Shown here: in pieces, positions 2,802 through 48,993 of the stretch | Position numbering within the stretch: the first letter of the stretch is position 1 | Layout: each line of letters opens with the position of its first letter | From: Planctomycetota bacterium | GTDB lineage: Bacteria > Planctomycetota > Phycisphaerae > UBA1845 | Reading direction: 5' to 3' | NCBI GenBank assembly: GCA_016200265.1 | Contig: JACQFE010000038.1 | Location: 13,539-77,538, forward strand | DNA: 64,000 bases | The notes under the pieces: model-generated | Told to the model about the DNA's origin: nothing | What the model saw: only the letters and a program-made list of their open reading frames with translations | Database searches by the model: none | Made by a program: the position numbers and the translations under genes

Positions 2802-5084
2802 ATGTCTCGCATTCTTTACGGCTTCGCATTCATTACGCTCGTCGTCATCGCCGCCCTGCGTCCTCTAATTGCGGAAACCTACGACTCGTCGCCCGCGACA
2901 ATCAGCCTAGCGGACCACAACATCACCGACCCGCAACCGATTCGAACGCTGGTGATTGATTTGGCAATCCTCGCGGCGGGTCTTGCGTGGGCAGGTGCGC
3001 GACTCAAGCCGAATGTGGCCAGATATCGTTGGACGGGCCTGGAGCCGGCCCTGATCATCATCGCCTGCGCGAGCGTTTTGTCATGCACCTCCGCGGGAAA
3101 CAAGCGCCTCGCAATCAATGCTTCGATAGACTGGCTTTGCTCGGGGGTGCTTGGCATAGTGCTCGTGCAAGTCATTCGGACGCCGTGGCAAAGGAATGTG
3201 TTGCTGGCGGCTGTGCTCGCCACCGCGGCCGTGCAGTTCACCCAGTGCGTCGACCAACGCGCATCCACGGAGGATACGTGGAAGCAATACCAACAAACAA
3301 GGGCTGAGTTCTGGCGAAAGCAAGGGATCGATTCCGAATCGAATCACGTGGCCTTGTTTGAGGCCCGAATGCGAGCCAACGAGTCTTCCGGATACCTGCC
3401 GCATAGCAATGTGACGGGATCATACTTCGCGATGTGCGGCCTGGCCGCGGTCGGCGTGACGATTGCGACATGGCGAAATCTCCTGACGTCTCGGCGATTT
3501 CTGCTTTTTTTGGGCTTGGTCGCATTGATGATTGCGCTGCTTGCCGGAATCGCGATGACGAAAAGTCGCGGGGCCGCGACATCATTCGTCTTGGCATTGA
3601 TTCTTTGGCTCGTCGTGTGGCGCGCACAAGGATGGATCGACTCTCATCGGCGGCAAGCATTCATGATTGGATGGATCGGTTTAGCTTTGATTCTAGTCGC
3701 GGTAGTCGGGCATGGAATTTATCACGGCACACTTCCGACGGATTCGCTGGCGTTTCGCTGGCACTATTGGCGGAACTCGATGGGCATGATTTGCGACCAC
3801 TGGTTTGCTGGAGTGGGCCGCGAGAATTTTGGCCGTCAATATCTCTTGTACAAGCCGATCGAAAGCCCCGAAGAAATCTCCAATCCGCACGACGTGTTCG
3901 TCCAGGCCGCCGCCGAGTGGGGGATTTTCGGGTTGATCGGCATTGTGGCTTTGCTCCTCGGTGCGTCGTGGGCACTGACAATGGGCCGATCGCATACCAA
4001 TGTCGCGACAAACTTGAATCTTGAATCTCTTGAAGCGTTGGCACATAAGTCCAAAGCGTCCGCACTTCGGCTGGGACTCCTTGGAATCATCATGGCAGTT
4101 GCGTTGACCGTGATCCGAATGCCACTCTTTGGCACCTGCGACAGAAGTTATCTGTATTATATGAGCACGCTGACGGCGATTGTTTGGCTGCCAATATTTG
4201 CTTGTGTTGCCTTCGCGTTGTCATGTGTGAAACCGGAAGTGCGAAAGTCGGTGGCTCTTGCAGGCGCGGCGTTTGGATTGTTTGCGTTCGCGTTGCAAGA
4301 GCTTATCAACTTCTCCCTTTTCGTTCCAGCCACTGCGACGACTGCGTTTGCAGTGTTTGCATGCGCGATCCCCGATTCGAACCGTGCGGCGATACGTCGG
4401 GAAACGACTGGAGATCATCGTACGATTCACGCTGTGCGGCGATGGCTTTTGACTCTCGCAACAACAGTTGCAATTGTGATGATCGCGCCAATGGAGGCTG
4501 TTCCGGTTTTTCGAACAGGCGCGCTGTTGTCGGAAGCGCGATCGCAGGCAATGATTCGTCCCCTCGGACATCCGGAAAATTCCGAAGCCGCGAACTTCTA
4601 CGAGCGTGCAGCAGCGGCCGATACGCTCGATCCCACGGCGTTCGTCGAACTCGCGCGATGGCTGGGCTCGATTGCTCCATTAGCGCCGCAGTCTGCGGCC
4701 ACATTCTCGCGGGCAGTTGAATTTGTCCAGGCGGCTCAGCAGCGAGACAAGTACAGCCATTCTCTGCGCCGCCTCGAGTTGCTCCTGTGTCGCGATCAGG
4801 CACGCCGAACAAGTGCGGCCACTAACTACGAAGCGGCGATCCACGCAGGCGACGAGATGCTGAAATTGTATCCCCTTGATCCGGCTGGGTTGGTGCTTGT
4901 GGGCGAGCTTCAACTTGAAGCCGCAAGAGCTACAAACTCTGATCTTCTTCGTTTCGCCGGTCTCGACTCGCTTCAGAAGGGGTTGGATTTGGATTCGCGC
5001 CGCCCCCGATGGTCGGTGTTTCAAGGTCTTACGGAATCGGAACGGGCCCGCGTGTCGCAGGAGATCGCCAATTGGCGAAAGTGA
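2802..5084 (+). CDS. O-antigen ligase-like (Wzy_C) polytopic membrane protein with C-terminal TPR-like helical domain
   Basis: Many TM helices. PHDVFVQAAAEWGIFGLIGIVALLL matches the H-N/D-x-[FY]-[LV]...E-x-G-x-x-G Wzy_C motif. The likely start is MSRILYGFAFITLVV at 2802 (alternative ATG at 2760); the track start 2694 is an upstream extension. Confidence 0.75.
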   Translation: MSRILYGFAFITLVVIAALRPLIAETYDSSPATISLADHNITDPQPIRTLVIDLAILAAGLAWAGARLKPNVARYRWTGLEPALIIIACASVLSCTSAGNKRLAINASIDWLCSGVLGIVLVQVIRTPWQRNVLLAAVLATAAVQFTQCVDQRASTEDTWKQYQQTRAEFWRKQGIDSESNHVALFEARMRANESSGYLPHSNVTGSYFAMCGLAAVGVTIATWRNLLTSRRFLLFLGLVALMIALLAGIAMTKSRGAATSFVLALILWLVVWRAQGWIDSHRRQAFMIGWIGLALILVAVVGHGIYHGTLPTDSLAFRWHYWRNSMGMICDHWFAGVGRENFGRQYLLYKPIESPEEISNPHDVFVQAAAEWGIFGLIGIVALLLGASWALTMGRSHTNVATNLNLESLEALAHKSKASALRLGLLGIIMAVALTVIRMPLFGTCDRSYLYYMSTLTAIVWLPIFACVAFALSCVKPEVRKSVALAGAAFGLFAFALQELINFSLFVPATATTAFAVFACAIPDSNRAAIRRETTGDHRTIHAVRRWLLTLATTVAIVMIAPMEAVPVFRTGALLSEARSQAMIRPLGHPENSEAANFYERAAAADTLDPTAFVELARWLGSIAPLAPQSAATFSRAVEFVQAAQQRDKYSHSLRRLELLLCRDQARRTSAATNYEAAIHAGDEMLKLYPLDPAGLVLVGELQLEAARATNSDLLRFAGLDSLQKGLDLDSRRPRWSVFQGLTESERARVSQEIANWRK

Positions 5085-5119
5085 ATTCGACTTTGAACTT
5101 TGAATTTCGAGCCTTGAAC
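5085..5119. repeat. Tandem heptamer array, about 5 units of TTYGARC
   Basis: Read directly: attcgac tttgaac tttgaat ttcgagc cttgaac. It begins at the ligase-like gene stop codon and ends 12 nt from the tRNA-Arg 3-prime end. Confidence 0.8.
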
Positions 5120-5130
5120 TTTTTCGCATT

Positions 5131-5204
5131 CGTCCCCGACAGGATTCGAACCTGTAACCTTCGGCTTCGGAGGCCGACGCGCTATCCAATTGTGCCACGG
5201 GGAC
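5131..5204 (-). tRNA. tRNA-Arg (anticodon CCG)
   Basis: The minus strand GTCCCCGTGGCACAATTGGATAGCGCGTCGGCCTCCGAAGCCGAAGGTTACAGGTTCGAATCCTGTCGGGGACG folds as a cloverleaf. Acceptor is GTCCCCG/CGGGGAC, anticodon arm TCGGC-CTCCGAA-GCCGA, T-arm ACAGG-TTCGAAT-CCTGT. There is one A-C mismatch in the D stem and no encoded CCA. Confidence 0.88.
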
Positions 5205-7496: not shown

Positions 7497-8618
7497 TCAG
7501 GTCGCTAACTCACGGATGATGGCGCAGCCGCGGCGGAGGCGATCGTCGGGGACACCGAAGCTGAGGCGGAAGTGAGTGTCCTGGCGGCTGAAAACTTCGC
7601 CGGGGATGACGAGCAGTTTTCGTTCAATGGCGGCGGCGACGAACTCGGTCGAGTTCTTGTAGCGCTTCGGAACTTTCGGAAACAGATAGAACGCACCGGA
7701 CGGTTTCACAAATTCGAGGCAGCCGCGCAATTCTTCGCAGGCGAGATCGCGCTTGCGGCGATAATCGTTCACTTGCTGCGAGATGTCGGTATCCAAGGCC
7801 TCCAGTGCGCCCCATTGACCCGGCTGCGGCGCGCACACGAACGTGTACTGCTGGAGCTTGGCCATTTCTTCGATGATTTCGCTCGGTCCGGCGGCAAAGC
7901 CGAGGCGCACGCCGGTCAATGCATACGATTTTCCGAAGCCGCGCAAGAGCAAGGTGCGTTCGGGCGCGAATTTGACGGGCGACGGGATTGGTGCGTCAAA
8001 ATGAAGAAGATCGTAAATCTCATCGGCGATGATCAACAGATCGTGCTTGCGGGCCAATTCGCAGATCGCGCGAACGTCGCTCTCGCGAAACACGACGCCG
8101 GTGGGGTTGCTCGGTGAGGCGATGATGATCATCTTCGTTCGCGGCGTGATGGCGGCCGCAATTCGCTCGGGGTGCAATTGAAAATCGTCGTAAAGACTCA
8201 CTGGCACGGGCACGCCGCCGGACAACTTCGGTAGATGGGCATAAGAAACAAAATACGGATCCGTGATCAGCACTTCGTCGCCGGGATTCAGACATGCGAA
8301 CATGGCCAGCAAAATGCCGCCGGATACGCCGCAGGTGACGAACAAATCCGGCGACCAGCCGAACTCGGCCTTGAGCTGCTCGGCGATGCGCTTGCGAAGC
8401 TCCGGCAGGCCTCGCGTGGGCGTGTAGCCGTTCTTGTTCGATTCAACGGCCCGCGTGATGGCTCGTTTGATATTGGCCGGCACTTCGAAATCCGGCTGCC
8501 CAAGCGAAAGATCGATGGGGTCCTTGAGCTGGCTCCCTAGATCGAAAATCCTGCGAATGCCCGATGAGCCGATACTCTTGATGCGGTCGGAGAGAAAGTG
8601 ATTTGCGGATGAAGGCAT
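7497..8618 (-). CDS. Class I/II pyridoxal-phosphate aminotransferase (aspartate/aromatic type)
   Basis: The sequence from MPSSANHFLSDRIKSIGSSGIRRIFDL...LSLGQPDFEVP...SFGKSYALTGVRLGF... is a typical aminotransferase layout (the SxxK Lys motif appears here as GKSYALTG). The track ORF (to 9074) is over-extended through stop-free repeat DNA. The ATG at 8618 gives 373 aa. Confidence 0.85.
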   Translation of the reverse strand: MPSSANHFLSDRIKSIGSSGIRRIFDLGSQLKDPIDLSLGQPDFEVPANIKRAITRAVESNKNGYTPTRGLPELRKRIAEQLKAEFGWSPDLFVTCGVSGGILLAMFACLNPGDEVLITDPYFVSYAHLPKLSGGVPVPVSLYDDFQLHPERIAAAITPRTKMIIIASPSNPTGVVFRESDVRAICELARKHDLLIIADEIYDLLHFDAPIPSPVKFAPERTLLLRGFGKSYALTGVRLGFAAGPSEIIEEMAKLQQYTFVCAPQPGQWGALEALDTDISQQVNDYRRKRDLACEELRGCLEFVKPSGAFYLFPKVPKRYKNSTEFVAAAIERKLLVIPGEVFSRQDTHFRLSFGVPDDRLRRGCAIIRELAT

Positions 8619-8713
8619 CAATTCATTCTTCAAGAGGCCCGGAGTTCGGCAACTCTGGGACAGCATATTCGGGCTTTGCGAGCCGTCAATCTTCTTGAGG
8701 AATGCACGGTTTC

Positions 8714-8740
8714 CGCAGATTGCGCAGATTTTCGCAGATC
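8714..8740. repeat. Triplet of CGCAGAT[TC] octamers with 9- and 10-bp spacing (array 1)
   Basis: CGCAGATT at 8714, CGCAGATT at 8723 and CGCAGATC at 8733. The array is followed by 9-nt-period GAAGTGCAC GAAGAACAC GAGGAGG. Confidence 0.8.
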
Positions 8741-8978
8741 TTTTACGACGAAGTGCACGAAGAACACGAGGAGGCCGGGTGCCGCATGGTTTGCGCGGCG
8801 AATCGAGAGTAACCAACTTAAGATCATGAAATCGCGCCACCAGATTGCAAACGTCGCAACCTGGGCCACTCCGGGCGTAAAGCGAAACTTTGAGTTGGGT
8901 TCGTTTGGTAAGGATAAATTTCACTAATGTCATGGCGTGGCACCGCAGTGCGGATTGCCGATTCTCGAGAGCAAGACT

Positions 8979-9006
8979 GAAGATTGAAGATAGAAGAGTG
9001 AAAAAG
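8979..9006. repeat. GAA-heptad array (4 units)
   Basis: gaagatt gaagata gaagagt gaaaaag, read directly. Confidence 0.75.
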
Positions 9007-9020
9007 GACGAGACAATCGC

Positions 9021-9047
9021 CGCAGATTCCGCAGATTGGCGCAGATT
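9021..9047. repeat. Triplet of CGCAGATT octamers with 9- and 10-bp spacing (array 2)
   Basis: CGCAGATT at 9021, 9030 and 9040. The order and spacing are the same as array 1, 307 bp upstream. Confidence 0.8.
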
Positions 9048-9129
9048 GAAGATGCGGGGGCACATGATTTCCACGTAGATAGAACGTTAAAGGTGATCGG
9101 CGAATTGTGGGAATTCGGCGAGCCCCGAG

Positions 9130-10980
9130 CTATGGCGCTACGAAGACTTGCTGCAGGCCGGAGAAGTCTTTGAGGTCCACGTCGCCATCGACATCGAAGT
9201 CGAAGGCTGCGCAGTTTGGCATTTCCGAGATGCGGCCGTCAGGGAGCGGTCCACTTGCGCACGTCGCCCAATTCGCGAAGTCCGCGATATTCACGCTTTG
9301 ATTGCAATCGAAGTCACCGATGCCGAATTCGTACGCGCCGATATCTGTGCGGCCGCAGAGGATGCGAGGGTGGCCGTCGAGGTCGGTTTCGCCGAAAGTA
9401 GGTGTGAATTTCGGATCGCCTGCGTTAATGCATGGCGAGCCGACGGAAAGCCGCAGGTCATCATCATTGGTGCCGGCGATTCCGTCTGCGCCAAGAGGAT
9501 CGACAAAATCTGGATCGACGTCGATGTTGAAAAAGCTGTAAAAACAGGGCTGCGGATCGGGAAGCCCTTGGATGTTTGAATACTCGACAATCATGCAATG
9601 CCCCCCCAACTCGTATCCGCCGTCGCGGAAGATGGAGTTGCAAATCTCCATTGAGTCAGATTGAACGCATGGACCGAAAGCGGCACGAACCGAATTATTC
9701 AAAAACGTGCTGTTGTAGGCTCTGAAATCACTTTGAGCATCGATGGCACCAACCGAAAGGCCAAGATTCCCATTGAAAAGGCTATTCGTAACCGCGACAT
9801 TTTTCGCAGTCACTGCGCCGCCTCCAGCCCCAAAGTTACCAACGAATTGGCAGTGATCGATTGAGGTCTCGTTTGCACTGATCGCCGCGAAGCTATTTTG
9901 ACCTGGTGTGCCGTTGTTTAGAAATTGGCAGTTCGAAAAATGGAAAACCCCGTTGAACGCGTTGTAGGTAGTAATTCCGCCGATGGCATTGCGCACAAAG
10001 GTTGAGTTTGTCACGGTGCCGCCACCGAGATTCGCGGCGCTTCCCTTATTGTCCGCAAACGTACACTGATAAATTGTGCATTCCTGGCTGTAAGACTCGG
10101 AATCGGCGCAGCTTGCGGCCGCCCAAGGCTGAATTTGTGAGCCGTTTGCTACGAATTTAGAGTGAATGTATCGCACCGGAGGTGGCGCTTCGACAGCGGA
10201 AAACGCGTTCTGATAAAAAACACAGTCGCGAAAAATGACGGAGGAAGCCGTCACGGATACCGCACCGCCGTAGGGAAAGTTGGTATTGCCATCGCGTTGC
10301 GTAGCTTCGCCACCCGTGAATGTCAGCCCGTCAAACAAAACATTCGATCCAGCCTGCGTCACTCGCACGACGTTACCGCTGTTGTCGCATCGCGTTGGTC
10401 GGCAGATGTCGCAACAAATTCCCGCAGCCGCCACGGAACAGTATTGCAACCACCCCCCACGGGGGTTTGAAACGCATCGCGCATAATCGGGAATGTCTGC
10501 GACAACTGCTGCTGCACACGTCGGATTGTCGCAACCGAGGTGGCCCGGGCCACGATTCGTGCAGCAGTTGCTTGTGACCAATGCGTCGGGATCGGGAAAG
10601 TCGTCGCCAGCCAAATCGCCGCTGAGGACGACAAGATGGGCCTGCGGGCCGCGTTGGTCAGGGCACTCTTCGAAGCCTCCGAAACCACCGTAAAGAGAGA
10701 CGTCGCCCGCAGGCTCAAATGCCAAGCGAACGTCGCCGGTTCCGCGATCGGGCTTGTACGTCCCTTCGGCAATCCAGATATCGCACGGACAACTCCCATT
10801 GAGGGCGACATTATCTAGAGCGTCCTGCAAGTCGACATAGGCATCGAGCCAACTCATGCCGTCATTTCTCCCATTGGCCGACTTGCTCACATAAATGATT
10901 CTCGCAGGTTGCGCCGAAGCGGGGCCGATGAGCAGCGTGATCGCGAGGATTGCAAGTGCGCAGTGTATTTGGTCAAACAT
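9130..10980 (-). CDS. Secreted right-handed beta-helix (pectate-lyase-like/adhesin-like) repeat protein with C-terminal dockerin/EF-hand-like module
   Basis: The signal peptide MFDQIHCALAILAITLLIGPASAQP starts at 10980. Repeated N-x-[AF]/G-G-A-[IV] beta-helix rungs are present (FRDCVFYQNAF.., CTFADNKGSAANLGGG, STFVRNAIGG, CQFVGNFGAGGGAV, SLFNGNLG). The C-terminus is DFDCNQSVNIADF...DFDVDGDVDLKDF. Confidence 0.7.
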   Translation of the reverse strand: MFDQIHCALAILAITLLIGPASAQPARIIYVSKSANGRNDGMSWLDAYVDLQDALDNVALNGSCPCDIWIAEGTYKPDRGTGDVRLAFEPAGDVSLYGGFGGFEECPDQRGPQAHLVVLSGDLAGDDFPDPDALVTSNCCTNRGPGHLGCDNPTCAAAVVADIPDYARCVSNPRGGWLQYCSVAAAGICCDICRPTRCDNSGNVVRVTQAGSNVLFDGLTFTGGEATQRDGNTNFPYGGAVSVTASSVIFRDCVFYQNAFSAVEAPPPVRYIHSKFVANGSQIQPWAAASCADSESYSQECTIYQCTFADNKGSAANLGGGTVTNSTFVRNAIGGITTYNAFNGVFHFSNCQFLNNGTPGQNSFAAISANETSIDHCQFVGNFGAGGGAVTAKNVAVTNSLFNGNLGLSVGAIDAQSDFRAYNSTFLNNSVRAAFGPCVQSDSMEICNSIFRDGGYELGGHCMIVEYSNIQGLPDPQPCFYSFFNIDVDPDFVDPLGADGIAGTNDDDLRLSVGSPCINAGDPKFTPTFGETDLDGHPRILCGRTDIGAYEFGIGDFDCNQSVNIADFANWATCASGPLPDGRISEMPNCAAFDFDVDGDVDLKDFSGLQQVFVAP

Positions 10981-11167: not shown

Positions 11168-11221
11168 TTCGTCGTATGTGCGTTTTGTCCGTTCGCGAAT
11201 GTGCAGTTTGCTTAGGAAATT

Positions 11222-11969
11222 GGCCGTGGAGCGGGCGGTAAGCCGAATCCTGTTCGTCCGCGTTTACTTACCGCTTCCTTACGGGGCGCGGCTCTGTTCA
11301 AGAAACCGCGCGAACTGAAGTTCGCGGCTCGCGTTTGGGCGCGGCTCGGAAAATATATGGTGCATCAAGATGCACCCTACGAAGTGCGGACGCGGCGATC
11401 ATGTGTCTAGGTCGGCGGTCACCCGTCGACTCAAGCGCCCTACCCGCAGCTGTCGAGCTTTCGCTCATCGAGGCGGGCCGCCTCTCGCTGCTTATTTGGG
11501 CTTGCTGGCGGTGGGGTTTGCCCTGCCGCGATGGTCACCCACCGCGCGGTGCGCTCTTACCGCACCATTTCACCCTTACCGGGGAAACGTTGAAACATCG
11601 AAAAGTCGAAATAACGTCGTTCAATAGAGGAGAAAATCGAGCGATCCGAACGATCATTTCACAAGGCGGCCAAGGAGATTCAAAGCCCCTAAGAAAATCC
11701 AATGAATCGTCGGGCCGATTGACCGACCGATTCGATTCAAATGTCCTGCCCTTTTGATCCCAAGGTGCTTTCCTTTTCGATATTTCGACTTTTCGATGTT
11801 TCAACGCTTCCCCGGCGGTTTGTTTTCTGTGGCACTTTCCCTCGGCTTACGCCGGGTTGGCGTTACCAACCACCGTACCCTGTCCAGTTCGGACTTTCCT
11901 CTCGAAGGGTATTGGCCGCAAGCATCGAGATTGCGCCCTTCGAGCGATCGCCTTGCCCGCTCCACGGCC
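11222..11969 (-). ncRNA. rnpB: RNase P RNA, bacterial type A, unusually long (about 748 nt)
   Basis: All conserved blocks are present on the minus strand:
- GAGGAAAGTCCGAAC (11901-11887).
- ACAGAAAACAAACCGCC.
- AAGGGTGAAATGGTGCGGTAAGAGCGCACC (about 11577-11548).
- GGCAAACCCCACCGCCAGCAAGCCCAAATAAG.
- GGGTAGGGCGCTTGAG.
- CCTAGAC.
- ACAGGATTCGGCTTA.
P1 is formed by GGCCGTGGAGCGGGC (11969-11955) pairing with GCCCGCTCCACGGCC (11236-11222). P4 shows compensatory changes relative to my recollection of E. coli M1 RNA (AAGUCCGAA pairs with UUCGGCUU). The ends are good to about 10 nt. Confidence 0.88.
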
Positions 11970-11975
11970 ATTGGC

Positions 11976-11981
11976 ATTGTA
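11976..11981 (-). promoter_or_regulatory. Candidate -10 box (TACAAT) for rnpB
   Basis: Minus strand reads ...GAATTGTGTACAATgccaatGGCCGTGGAGC. TACAAT ends 6 nt before the first P1 nucleotide. No convincing -35 was seen. Confidence 0.35.
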
Positions 11982-12004: not shown

Positions 12005-12071
12005 GAAGTTCAAAGTTTGAAATTCGAAGTTCGAAGGAAGATCGAAGAGCGAATGGCGAAGATTGAAGAAT
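12005..12071. repeat. Composite heptad array: block A GAAGTTC-type (12005-12036) plus block B GAAGAKC/GAATGGC-type (12037-12071)
   Basis: gaagttc aaagttt gaaattc gaagttc gaag | gaagatc gaagagc gaatggc gaagatt gaagaat. Positions 12043-12063 are identical to 47425-47445 (21 nt). Confidence 0.85.
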
Positions 12072-16741: not shown

Positions 16742-17038
16742 CTATTCGCTGGAACAATGACGACAGGTGTGGTTTTCGGGGACAGGATCAAACCCACCCC
16801 GCGCGAGCGGGCGACATCGGCAGCCCCTTCGGATCGTAAGAATGACGCCGCGAAATGCCCCATGCGACTGAAGGGCGTCCACGGCATATTCACTACAAGT
16901 GGGGTGAAAAATGCAATGACCGATCAAGTGTGGACGAACCAGAATCTGGTAAGCCTGCACCGCAACGATCAGCGCGTGGACTGGCAAATTACAAACGTGT
17001 CGAAACAAGGTTGGGCTGAGGCGTCTTCTCGCGACCAC
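16742..17038 (-). CDS. yidD: Membrane protein insertion efficiency factor YidD
   Basis: ALIVAVQAYQILVRPHLIGHCIFHPTCSEYAVDALQSHGAFRGVILTIRRGCRCRPLARGGFDPVP is the YidD signature. An in-frame GTG at 17038 avoids overlap with the upstream gene. The track start (TTG at 17104) would overlap it by 56 nt. Confidence 0.75.
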   Translation of the reverse strand: MVARRRLSPTLFRHVCNLPVHALIVAVQAYQILVRPHLIGHCIFHPTCSEYAVDALQSHGAFRGVILTIRRGCRCRPLARGGFDPVPENHTCRHCSSE

Positions 17039-17048
17039 GCCGGCGATT

Positions 17049-17831
17049 TTATCGGTGAGCGAGGCATAGGACAACCACCGCAGAGGCGAAGAACACCAAT
17101 CCAACCCAGCCGAGAATCGACTTCACCTTCGGGTTGATTCGGGCCAGTGGCTTGTCCATCGCTTCGAGCACGCGAATTCCGGAGTCGCATACTCTGGTGG
17201 CAGCCGGCGACACGCGATCGGTCAGGATATGCATTTTTCGTTTCCCGGCACGAGTGGGCGTATCAGCAATTTGAGTGGATAAATCGGCACTGTCGTCAAG
17301 TGCCGGTGCGGCAGCGGCCCTTTTTTTTCCCGTAACTTCCGTCGCCGCGGTCACGACGGCGTTGGGCGCAGTGACCGCCGCGTTAAATCCTCCATGTGGC
17401 GCACTGGTCGGGGGCTCGGGAGCTATGGAAGTCGATGCTGGCTCTTCCGGGCGAGTAAATTCTGACATGAAATCCGGGACTACCGTAGCTTGCCGAGTCA
17501 AACTCTGGTGTTGAGGGGTCTCAATTGAGGGTGCATGATCCGAAAAGTCTTCGACATGAGTGCCATTTGCTTCCACAGACTCAATCTGCCTCTTGGTTTC
17601 CGCGAGAAGCTTGTCCAGCTCTTCGATTTCTGAATCGGCATCGCGCAGTTCAATGGAATTTGGGAGATTTGCCGCGGCTTGCAAGGAGTTGGAGTCAGAT
17701 ACTTCTTGAGCGAGATTTCCAGCGAGGGTCGACGCACGGGAAAGTGCATCATCAAGCTGCTGCTCCGAAATCTGATCCCACTCGGTCGAAGCCGATAGTG
17801 GATCTGGTTTGTATCCTTCAGGTGAACTCAT
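17049..17831 (-). CDS. Hypothetical acidic, low-complexity protein with C-terminal TM anchor
   Basis: 260-aa ORF with a coiled-coil-like segment (EIEELDKLLAETKRQIESVE) and the terminal helix ILGWVGLVFFASAVVVLCLA. I recognise no family. Confidence 0.45.
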   Translation of the reverse strand: MSSPEGYKPDPLSASTEWDQISEQQLDDALSRASTLAGNLAQEVSDSNSLQAAANLPNSIELRDADSEIEELDKLLAETKRQIESVEANGTHVEDFSDHAPSIETPQHQSLTRQATVVPDFMSEFTRPEEPASTSIAPEPPTSAPHGGFNAAVTAPNAVVTAATEVTGKKRAAAAPALDDSADLSTQIADTPTRAGKRKMHILTDRVSPAATRVCDSGIRVLEAMDKPLARINPKVKSILGWVGLVFFASAVVVLCLAHR

Positions 17832-23137: not shown

Positions 23138-23170
23138 TTTGAACTTCGAACTTTGAATTTTGAACTTCAC
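23138..23170. repeat. Tandem heptamer array TTYGAAY x4.5
   Basis: tttgaac ttcgaac tttgaat tttgaac ttcac. It ends 12 nt upstream of the FG-GAP gene ATG on the minus strand. Confidence 0.85.
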
Positions 23171-47138: not shown

Positions 47139-47211
47139 CAGGAGCGGAGGGATTTGAACCCCCAACCGCCGGTTTTGGAAACCGGTGCTCTGCCAATTGA
47201 GCTACGCTCCT
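47139..47211 (-). tRNA. tRNA-Trp (anticodon CCA)
   Basis: Minus strand AGGAGCGTAGCTCAATTGGCAGAGCACCGGTTTCCAAAACCGGCGGTTGGGGGTTCAAATCCCTCCGCTCCTG. The anticodon arm is CCGGT-TTCCAAA-ACCGG. Confidence 0.92.
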
Positions 47212-48920: not shown

Positions 48921-48993
48921 AGCTGCTGACGGGAATCGAACCCGTGACCTCGTCCTTACCAAGGACGCACTCTACCAGCTGAGCTACAGCAGC
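48921..48993 (-). tRNA. tRNA-Thr (anticodon GGT)
   Basis: Minus strand GCTGCTGTAGCTCAGCTGGTAGAGTGCGTCCTTGGTAAGGACGAGGTCACGGGTTCGATTCCCGTCAGCAGCT. The anticodon arm is CGTCC-TTGGTAA-GGACG. It sits in the classical position upstream of tuf. Confidence 0.92.

Follow-up and report, generated by a model that had tools for sequence, protein, structure and literature searches.

The ribozyme that trims tRNA, RNase P RNA, serves as a textbook case of conservation, and the locus studied here raises the question of how such an RNA can come to be twice its normal length. We analyzed a stretch of 64,000 nt from an uncultured planctomycete (contig JACQFE010000038.1 of assembly GCA_016200265.1; hereafter "the window", to which all positions refer unless another contig is named), in which an initial annotation made from the letters alone had recognized an rnpB gene of ~748 nt. 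Based on covariance models, folding, and comparison with related contigs, we consider it likely that this gene encodes a functional type-A RNase P catalytic RNA carrying repeat-driven expansion segments, which would presumably be active as a single ~750-nt transcript.

Identity and conserved core of the RNA

The window rnpB was screened by cmscan against Rfam. The model for bacterial RNase P class A (RF00010; model length 367, gathering score 100) matched at 11224-11963 on the minus strand with 258.2 bits, i.e., 2.5x the gathering threshold, and an E-value of 5.1e-83. Class A was the best clan member kept, and this was the sole RNase P match within the window. The alignment ran end to end (model positions 1-367/367), so that the type-A blocks listed by the initial annotation were indeed placed together in one minus-strand molecule. 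All conserved RNase P nucleotides were intact. The type-A helices P13, P14, P16-17/P6, and P18 were aligned with high posterior probability and were also recovered by free folding, and the helix set was that of type A rather than that of type B (P5.1, P10.1, P15.1).

The two pairings that had been proposed, P1 and P4, were also recovered. The perfect P1 pairing was found as a 16-nt inverted repeat, and the long-range P4 pairing between conserved regions (CR) I and V joins AAG(U)CCGAA (11887-11899) with UUCGGCUU (11239-11253). Relative to the P4 consensus CCGGg / CCCGG, double changes have turned two G-C pairs into A-U pairs, in agreement with the compensatory changes first noted. An unconstrained fold of the 748 nt had a minimum free energy (MFE) of -339.7 kcal/mol (z = -9.1) and recovered P1, P2, P3, P8, P9, P12-P14, P15-17, and P18, with P12 and P19 appearing as self-contained domains. 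Compared to the type-A RNAs of E. coli (M1) and Thermotoga maritima, the window rnpB shares the conserved regions, the P1-P18 order, the P4 pseudoknot strands, and the P8, P9, P13, P14, and P18 hairpins, but differs in its P12 of 233 nt, its branched P19 of 138 nt, a larger P3, and one more hairpin in P15-17. No obvious GGU motif was found in the L15 region, which fits with tRNA genes lacking an encoded CCA: none of the three tRNA genes of the window (5131-5204, 47139-47211, and 48921-48993, all on the minus strand) encodes the 3' CCA. The same combination of a missing L15 GGU and tRNA genes without CCA occurs in cyanobacteria and chlamydiae.

At 740-748 nt, the RNA is about twice as long as usual, as first stated: the published range of prokaryotic RNase P RNAs is 250-550 nt, with a mean of 374 nt for the A type (PMC7191817). 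The excess sits in RF00010 insert states and is spread over four places, namely the P3 loop (~20 nt), the P12 loop (~230 nt), P15-17 (13 nt), and the P19 position (~120 nt). The initial attribution of the excess to two inserts therefore holds in that the covariance model places both of them there, with their extents exactly as first given and both named hairpins of the second element present, but falls short in that smaller P3 and P15-17 additions contribute too. Both large inserts occupy helix tips in the cmscan alignment, and the 138-nt element, flanked by the 3' strands of P2 (11394-11400) and P4, takes the position of P19.

Expansion segments in P12 and P19

Repeats are a hazard for assembly, and mis-assembly at an insert boundary, a concern raised from the start, was checked at the contig level. 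The window was 100% identical over 7.5 kb to a second NCBI contig from a metagenome-assembled genome (MAG), JACOTE010000040.1 (GCA_016178855.1, 'Planctomycetes bacterium'). A JGI contig from another sample (L032), whose YggX-like neighbor is 90% identical, carries rnpB in the same place and agrees with the window in the enlargement of P3, at the two P12 junctions, and at the 5' junction of P19, and another contig (L033; YggX-like neighbor 85% identical) has the same TACAAT box and rnpB 5' end. Two further contigs, L040 and L107, assembled from separate metagenomes, hold identical 725-nt rnpB genes. Because the junctions recur in contigs from other samples and L040 and L107 agree, a mis-assembly of the window rnpB is very unlikely. 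Synteny was limited to L032 and L033: where YggX neighbors were ≤82% identical, rnpB was no longer adjacent. The beta-helix neighbor of the window rnpB had no close homolog (≤42% identity), and hence the 3' two-thirds of P19 were not obtained from the L032 lineage. A contig boundary considered at 9299 in the window was rejected, as an identical PEPCK gene lies on one longer NCBI contig.

The comparison of the window with L032 provides rates of change for the individual parts of the RNA. As a neutral yardstick we used the adjacent gene, in which 57.8% of 4-fold sites and 64% of third codon positions are identical. The rnpB core was 96.2-96.4% identical (97.5% in the ranking of relatives) without indels; set against 58% at neutral sites, this indicates strong purifying selection on the core. 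For the first 51 nt of P19, where the L032 contig ends, identity was 96-98%. The P12 arms were 70-74% identical, and the P12 interior 61% identical when ungapped and 41% over all columns, with 58 gap columns. Nevertheless, the arms were free of mismatches in both genomes, with uninterrupted runs of 36 base pairs for the window and 30 for L032, and they differed by whole 8-nt units and by a U-A to C-G double change. On these rates, the P12 tip reads as nearly neutral filler, the pairing of the P12 helix would be owed to selection or else to the repeat mechanism, and the comparable part of P19 appears to be constrained as strongly as the core. The two smaller additions vary as well: the P3 loop sequence is not the same in the window and L032, and the P15-17 span, 47 nt in the window, reaches up to 124 nt in relatives.

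The P12 expansion is a single long hairpin. Its two 38-nt arms, at 11579-11616 and 11778-11815, show 95% complementarity, its outer helix consists of 36 uninterrupted Watson-Crick or G-U pairs, and its predicted fold has an MFE of -97 kcal/mol (z = -6.9). Each arm is a tandem array of an 8-nt unit, GUCGAAAN on the 5' side and its complement UUUCGACN on the 3' side, and the exact 25-mer GTTGAAACATCGAAAAGTCGAAATA is confined to the two arms within the window. No second copy of the interior turned up in the rest of the window or among related contigs amounting to 0.7 Mb. At the junctions there was no target-site duplication, and the inverted repeat continues directly into the native P12 base. Across the clade, the 5' arms of P12 likewise hold period-8 arrays of a GAAACGYM / AAAAGUCA family with the complement on the 3' arm; such arrays are found on both arms not only in the window but also in most members whose P12 is longer than 85 nt, and the unit is 7 nt long (ACUAGAA) in a few clade members. 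Paired short tandem repeats on both P12 strands, as in the expansions built from STRR (short tandemly repeated repetitive) sequences, were thus found in the window and most of the clade. In the window and the clade, the expanded segments each fold considerably better than shuffled sequences (z of -5 to -10, 70-87% paired). An Rfam scan of the inserts at permissive E-values detected no intron, riboswitch, or other family. Open reading frames (ORFs) over the inserts (e.g., 11535-11804, 89 aa) were regarded as spurious, the sequence not being conserved in L032. A different kind of repeat was captured in the P12 of L040 (4965-5689; L107 1975-2699), where 285 nt of the 725-nt rnpB hold ~2.5 tandem copies of a ~50-nt module, a hairpin GGUGGGCGAUGCCCACC followed by CUACGAAG.

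Of the three GAGCCGCG units in the P19 element, two are members of dispersed repeat families. Unit 2 matches an intergenic site in L096 at 26/26 nt, and its hairpin family, GAGCCGCG-RRC-UUCA-GYY-CGCGCGG, has six copies outside rnpB in other contigs (L036 ~498, L051 ~234, L096 33-58, L099 ~1674, L101 ~89, and L110 ~1169). The stems of these copies vary by compensatory changes (GGAC/GUCC, GAAC/GUUC, GGGC/GCCC), and the copies are sometimes arranged as inverted pairs (L051, L110). Unit 3, of a second type, matches intergenic sites in L020-L028 at 29/31 nt (L020 2590-2619) and recurs in L058 (two copies, at 88 and 192) and L061 (~2690). The matches of the P19 repeats to dispersed copies had E-values of 2.6e-7 and 3e-6, and no Rfam family covered the dispersed hairpin repeats in a scan at permissive E-values. 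Copies also lie close to other rnpB genes: one in L051 separates a TAGAAT box from the rnpB 5' end, and one in L036 follows the rnpB 3' end by ~45 nt. On the RNA strand (minus), P19 contains two hairpins that score as intrinsic-terminator-like, at 11359-11376 (GGUGCAUCUUGAUGCACC then AUAUAUUUUC; conserved in L032) and at 11309-11326 (CGCGAACUUCAGUUCGCG then CGGUUUCUUG); if the P19 hairpins terminated transcription, the RNA would be without the P4 and P1 3' strands.

Table 1 Features of the rnpB locus in the window
Feature	Position	Strand	Basis or remark
rnpB, type-A RNase P RNA	11222..11969	-	~748 nt from P1; 740 nt by covariance model
P1 5' strand	11955..11970	-	16-nt, 100% complementary inverted repeat with 11221-11236
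P1 3' strand	11221..11236	-	pairs perfectly with 11955-11970, joining the RNA ends
P3, helix + internal loop + helix	11899..11945	-	~20 nt above model (cmscan inserts); folded
P4 5' strand in CR-I, GGAAAGUCCGAAC	11887..11899	-	GAA replaces consensus GGg, compensated in 3' strand
P4 3' strand in CR-V, ACAGGAUUCGGCUUA	11239..11253	-	RF00010 alignment
P12 expansion, 233-nt hairpin	11581..11813	-	~230-nt insert in model P12 loop
P12 5' arm, 8-nt tandem repeat, RNA sense GUCGAAAN, ~3.5 copies	11775..11802	-	Tandem Repeats Finder (TRF), period 8
P12 3' arm, complementary 8-nt tandem repeat UUUCGACN, ~3.5 copies	11584..11611	-	TRF
P12 interior, fast-evolving	11617..11777	-	alignment of window and L032
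P15-P17 block with extra GAAA-capped hairpin (11452-11469, P16.1-like)	11446..11491	-	13-nt insert (cmscan)
P19, expanded, multi-branched, 138 nt, closed by GCGUCCGC/GCGGACG	11255..11392	-	autonomous domain in folds
P19 hairpin A, GGGUGCAUC-UU-GAUGCACC, then AUAUAUUUUC	11359..11377	-	folds; conserved in L032
P19 unit 2, GAGCCGCGAACUUCAGUUCGCGCGG, dispersed hairpin repeat copy	11306..11330	-	matches in other contigs
P19 unit 3, AGAGCCGCGCCCCGUAAGGAAGCGGU, second dispersed repeat type	11270..11295	-	matches in other contigs
Probable -10 box TACAAT	11976..11981	-	6-7 nt upstream of first P1 nucleotide
7-nt tandem arrays (GAAGTTC, GAAGAGC)	12005..12062	.	just upstream of rnpB promoter; TRF

Size variation among relatives and proposed origin of the expansions

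To place the window rnpB among its relatives, we used a metagenome scan keyed on the P8 hairpin of the lineage, which yielded at least 81 loci, with L032 not among them, and is a sample rather than a census. Anchoring on conserved blocks identified 51 distinct complete rnpB genes among these loci. Their total size ranged from ~390 to 725 nt, with core blocks fixed at 85 nt and 40 nt and three hypervariable sites: the P12 span (20-295 nt), P15-17, or P16.1 (32-124 nt), and P19 (16-152 nt). The largest by Rfam measured 725 (L040/L107), 681 (L106), 585, 582, 570, 565, 559, and 549 nt. In the relatives, period-7 arrays (GAAUGNC) build the expanded P15-17 hairpin. Among the matches listed, the window rnpB (740 nt) was the largest overall, with the largest P19 and the second-largest P12; the nearest relative after L032 was L076, at 95% core identity, and other near relatives had core identities of ~92-93%. 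Since L076 is this similar in its core yet has a P12 span of 96 nt and a P19 region of ~20 nt, the final growth of P12 and P19 would be recent. A scan of GTDB keyed on the P4 GAAC variant returned 16 unrelated species with rnpB genes of 339-515 nt and did not recover the lineage of the window. Named protein relatives were Planctomycetota and Phycisphaerae MAGs with ≤75% identity (PEPCK), and the lineage is accordingly poorly sampled.

These comparisons qualify the initial impression of an unusual size: the window rnpB is extreme, and we found no paper with such sizes, but related planctomycete contigs carry RNAs of 500-725 nt, so that the proviso of the initial annotation, a gene that is real but not novel, applies in part. 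Specifically, our literature search retrieved no report of a bacterial RNase P RNA this large or of tandem repeats in planctomycete rnpB, and a repeat-built RNase P RNA architecture has, to our knowledge, not been described for planctomycetes. In cultured planctomycetes and other bacteria from the Planctomycetes-Verrucomicrobia-Chlamydiae (PVC) group, as studied by Butler and Fuerst in 2004 and by Herrmann et al., the same helices are variable, P12, P16.1, and P19 reportedly being highly variable in length in the former study, while the expansions of the window clade are several-fold longer and its lineage is uncultured. For the PVC superphylum, expansions of P16.1 and P19 are noted in PMC9945441, which also covers the Methylacidiphilum P RNA. 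The window rnpB represents an extreme case of a trend, not described before, in a clade of uncultured planctomycetes.

Several known systems resemble parts of this architecture. STRR sequences reportedly lengthen the P12 of RNase P RNA in heterocyst-forming cyanobacteria, according to the work of Vioque in Nucleic Acids Res 25:3471. These STRR-expanded cyanobacterial P12 helices (Vioque 1997) are cited in PMC2858038. As in the cyanobacteria, short tandem repeats occupy both P12 strands, close relatives (here the window and L032) differ in repeat content, and short tandem arrays, of 7-nt units in the window, also lie in intergenic DNA. Unlike the cyanobacterial heptamers, however, the unit of the window clade is 8 nt long in P12 and 7 nt in P16.1, with a different sequence, the unit family is conserved across the planctomycete clade instead of being unrelated between strains, and the expansions are much larger, involve three helices rather than one, and occur in another phylum. 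The window P12 is therefore an analog, not a member, of the cyanobacterial STRR-type expansion. The inserts also resemble rRNA intervening sequences and expansion segments, being stem-loops at peripheral helix tips of an essential RNA that are hypervariable between relatives, but the host RNA is another one and part of P19 is conserved as the core is. Finally, the GAGCCGCG units resemble repetitive extragenic palindromic (REP) sequences and bacterial interspersed mosaic elements (BIME) in that they are short GC-rich hairpins at many intergenic sites, but differ from these in having copies inside a structural RNA gene, as a predicted part of its transcript. We know of no transposase associated with these hairpin repeats.

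In the reading we propose, the core for pre-tRNA binding and cleavage is canonical, and surface segments that tolerate insertions account for the doubled length of the RNA. Both P12 and P19 are peripheral, directed away from the active site, and variable or even absent in other bacteria, and hence can accept insertions. P12 would have grown in place by changes in the copy number of its 8-nt repeat (GUCGAAAN family on the 5' arm, complement on the 3' arm), presumably through slippage: P12, and P16.1 in relatives, would lengthen and shorten as short tandem repeats slip on both arms, and the helix would be robust to unequal copy numbers because any repeat register still pairs. Its tip changes at close to the neutral rate. 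The P16.1-like hairpin of relatives is likewise inflated by 7-nt repeats. P19, on the other hand, would have been enlarged by the capture of dispersed hairpin repeats later integrated into the fold, an origin that the matches of units 2 and 3 make plausible; that at least the 5' third of P19 is held as constant as the core suggests such integration. A whole uncultured lineage carries RNase P RNAs of 500-750 nt compared to a quoted bacterial range of ~250-550 nt, and, if these mechanisms hold, the route of growth can be read from the sequences, with slippage-prone 7-8-nt repeats that stay paired and one helix rebuilt from dispersed hairpins. This would provide a bacterial, small-scale model for the origin of expansion segments in essential RNAs, and natural variants with which to gauge the ribozyme's tolerance of peripheral RNA. 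In practice, an rnpB annotation that filters by length would overlook genes of this kind or cut them short.

A number of observations weigh against this scenario. The constraint on P19 is read from 51 nt in one relative, and the clade-wide pattern from a sample of loci. The 8-nt unit of P12 differs from the 7-nt intergenic arrays of the window, a P12-type octamer array outside rnpB was found only in L111 among the loci examined, and the GAGCCGCG hairpin units had no further copy in the other 63 kb of the window. In addition, there was no rnpA match in the window; although yidD (PF01809, E 1e-23) lies ~5 kb from rnpB, at 16742-17104 on the minus strand, the ORFs upstream of it had no rnpA match, and the usual rnpA-yidD linkage was not evident. 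The genome may also hold a second, smaller rnpB elsewhere.

In a rival explanation, the inserts would not be a lasting part of the RNA: they would be cut after transcription, the P12 duplex being a substrate for RNase III and the mature RNA either two-piece or deprived of its P12 tip. The long perfect helices in the window and L032, a pairing preserved despite ~28% arm divergence, and an interior that behaves as dispensable sequence would all be consistent with such cutting. rRNA intervening sequences are likewise extended stem-loops at helix tips, which RNase III cuts out with the ends left unjoined, and in vitro, fragments suffice to reconstitute bacterial RNase P RNA. Yet no report of a fragmented bacterial RNase P RNA was found in a literature search, nor are we aware of one in bacteria, and the repeat-lengthened cyanobacterial P12 helices of Vioque 1997 are said to be described as part of the mature RNA, so that we regard post-transcriptional cutting as unlikely. 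A broader proposal, to which we would give a modest chance, is that in this clade the ribozyme is a sink for genomic repeats and that the repeats have acquired a role, either by giving rise to an RNase III-split RNase P RNA or through a new functional module in the conserved, repeat-derived P19. In the former case, RNase III-cut helices of 30-36 bp would constitute the first natural split bacterial RNase P; in the latter, the module might, e.g., dock an additional protein or make a new tertiary contact via its GUAA loop, and would be the bacterial equivalent of the expansions that bind protein in archaeal and eukaryal RNase P.

Two other alternatives concern the origin and the reality of the gene. 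The exact 25-mer on both arms, the 95% complementarity over 38 nt, and an interior unrelated to anything else are what a miniature inverted-repeat transposable element (MITE) with 25-nt perfect terminal inverted repeats would leave after jumping into the P12 loop. Such an element is hard to reconcile with arms made of tandem 8-nt units from the family that occupies P12 across the clade, with whole-unit differences between the window and L032 on both arms, with an inverted repeat that runs into the native P12 base without target-site duplication, and with the lack of any other copy in the 64 kb of the window and in related contigs totaling 0.7 Mb, and we consider it quite improbable. An assembly artifact, or a decaying pseudogene replaced, e.g., by a protein-only RNase P, appears extremely improbable: the junctions appear again both in an independent contig of different sample origin and in the second NCBI record, an rnpB of equal size class had the same assembly in different metagenomes, the core shows 96% identity without indels compared to 58% at neutral sites, and the conserved nucleotides are all intact. 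These outweigh the provenance from a metagenome-assembled genome, the presence of repeats, the absence of rnpA from the 64-kb window, and the sporadic occurrence of HARP-type protein-only RNase P in Planctomycetes (PMC9945441), which would favor it. A functional type-A RNA with repeat-driven expansion segments hence remains the explanation we prefer.

Upstream region and genomic surroundings

Upstream of rnpB, the TACAAT box is kept at the same distance from the gene in L032 and L033 while the flanks diverge. A consensus promoter scan called no full sigma-70 promoter upstream of the window rnpB, and TACAAT is probably its -10 box. Arrays comparable to the 7-nt tandem repeats next to this box lie directly upstream of rnpB in L047, L086, L106, L111, L083, and L098, the one in L086 consisting of AGGTCGA x7.4. 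Within the window, TRF identified intergenic 7-nt arrays, similar in composition to the P12 repeat, at five sites (4013-4028, 5082-5122, 8973-9002, 12005-12062, and 23138-23168), with units such as GAAGTTC, GAACTTC, ACTTTGA, and AAGATTG, and one of these arrays lies directly 3' of the tRNA gene at 5131-5204 (minus strand).

Arrays with 9-10-nt units (CCGCAGATT) at 8710-8739 and 9019-9048 flank a region that is read through by ORF 7497-9074. The aminotransferase domain of this ORF is limited to residues 185-520, and its first ~180 codons are therefore probably not coding, which would leave 8520-9130 intergenic. A motif GGGTTCGTTTGGTAAG ... GTCATGGCGTGGCACC is common to the window (~8897-8945) and L111 (rnpB-sense ~2305-2355, ~2470, and ~2535), where it occurs three times within 250 nt and adjoins arrays of the P12-type octamer (AAACGTCA) outside rnpB. 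In three related contigs, matches to Acido-Lenti-1 (RF01687) above the gathering score were found 0.3-1.4 kb from rnpB (L047 1058-1104, 1151-1197, and 2079-2125; L086 10153-10198; L058 12512-12558), and the several copies on one contig suggest a repeated element.

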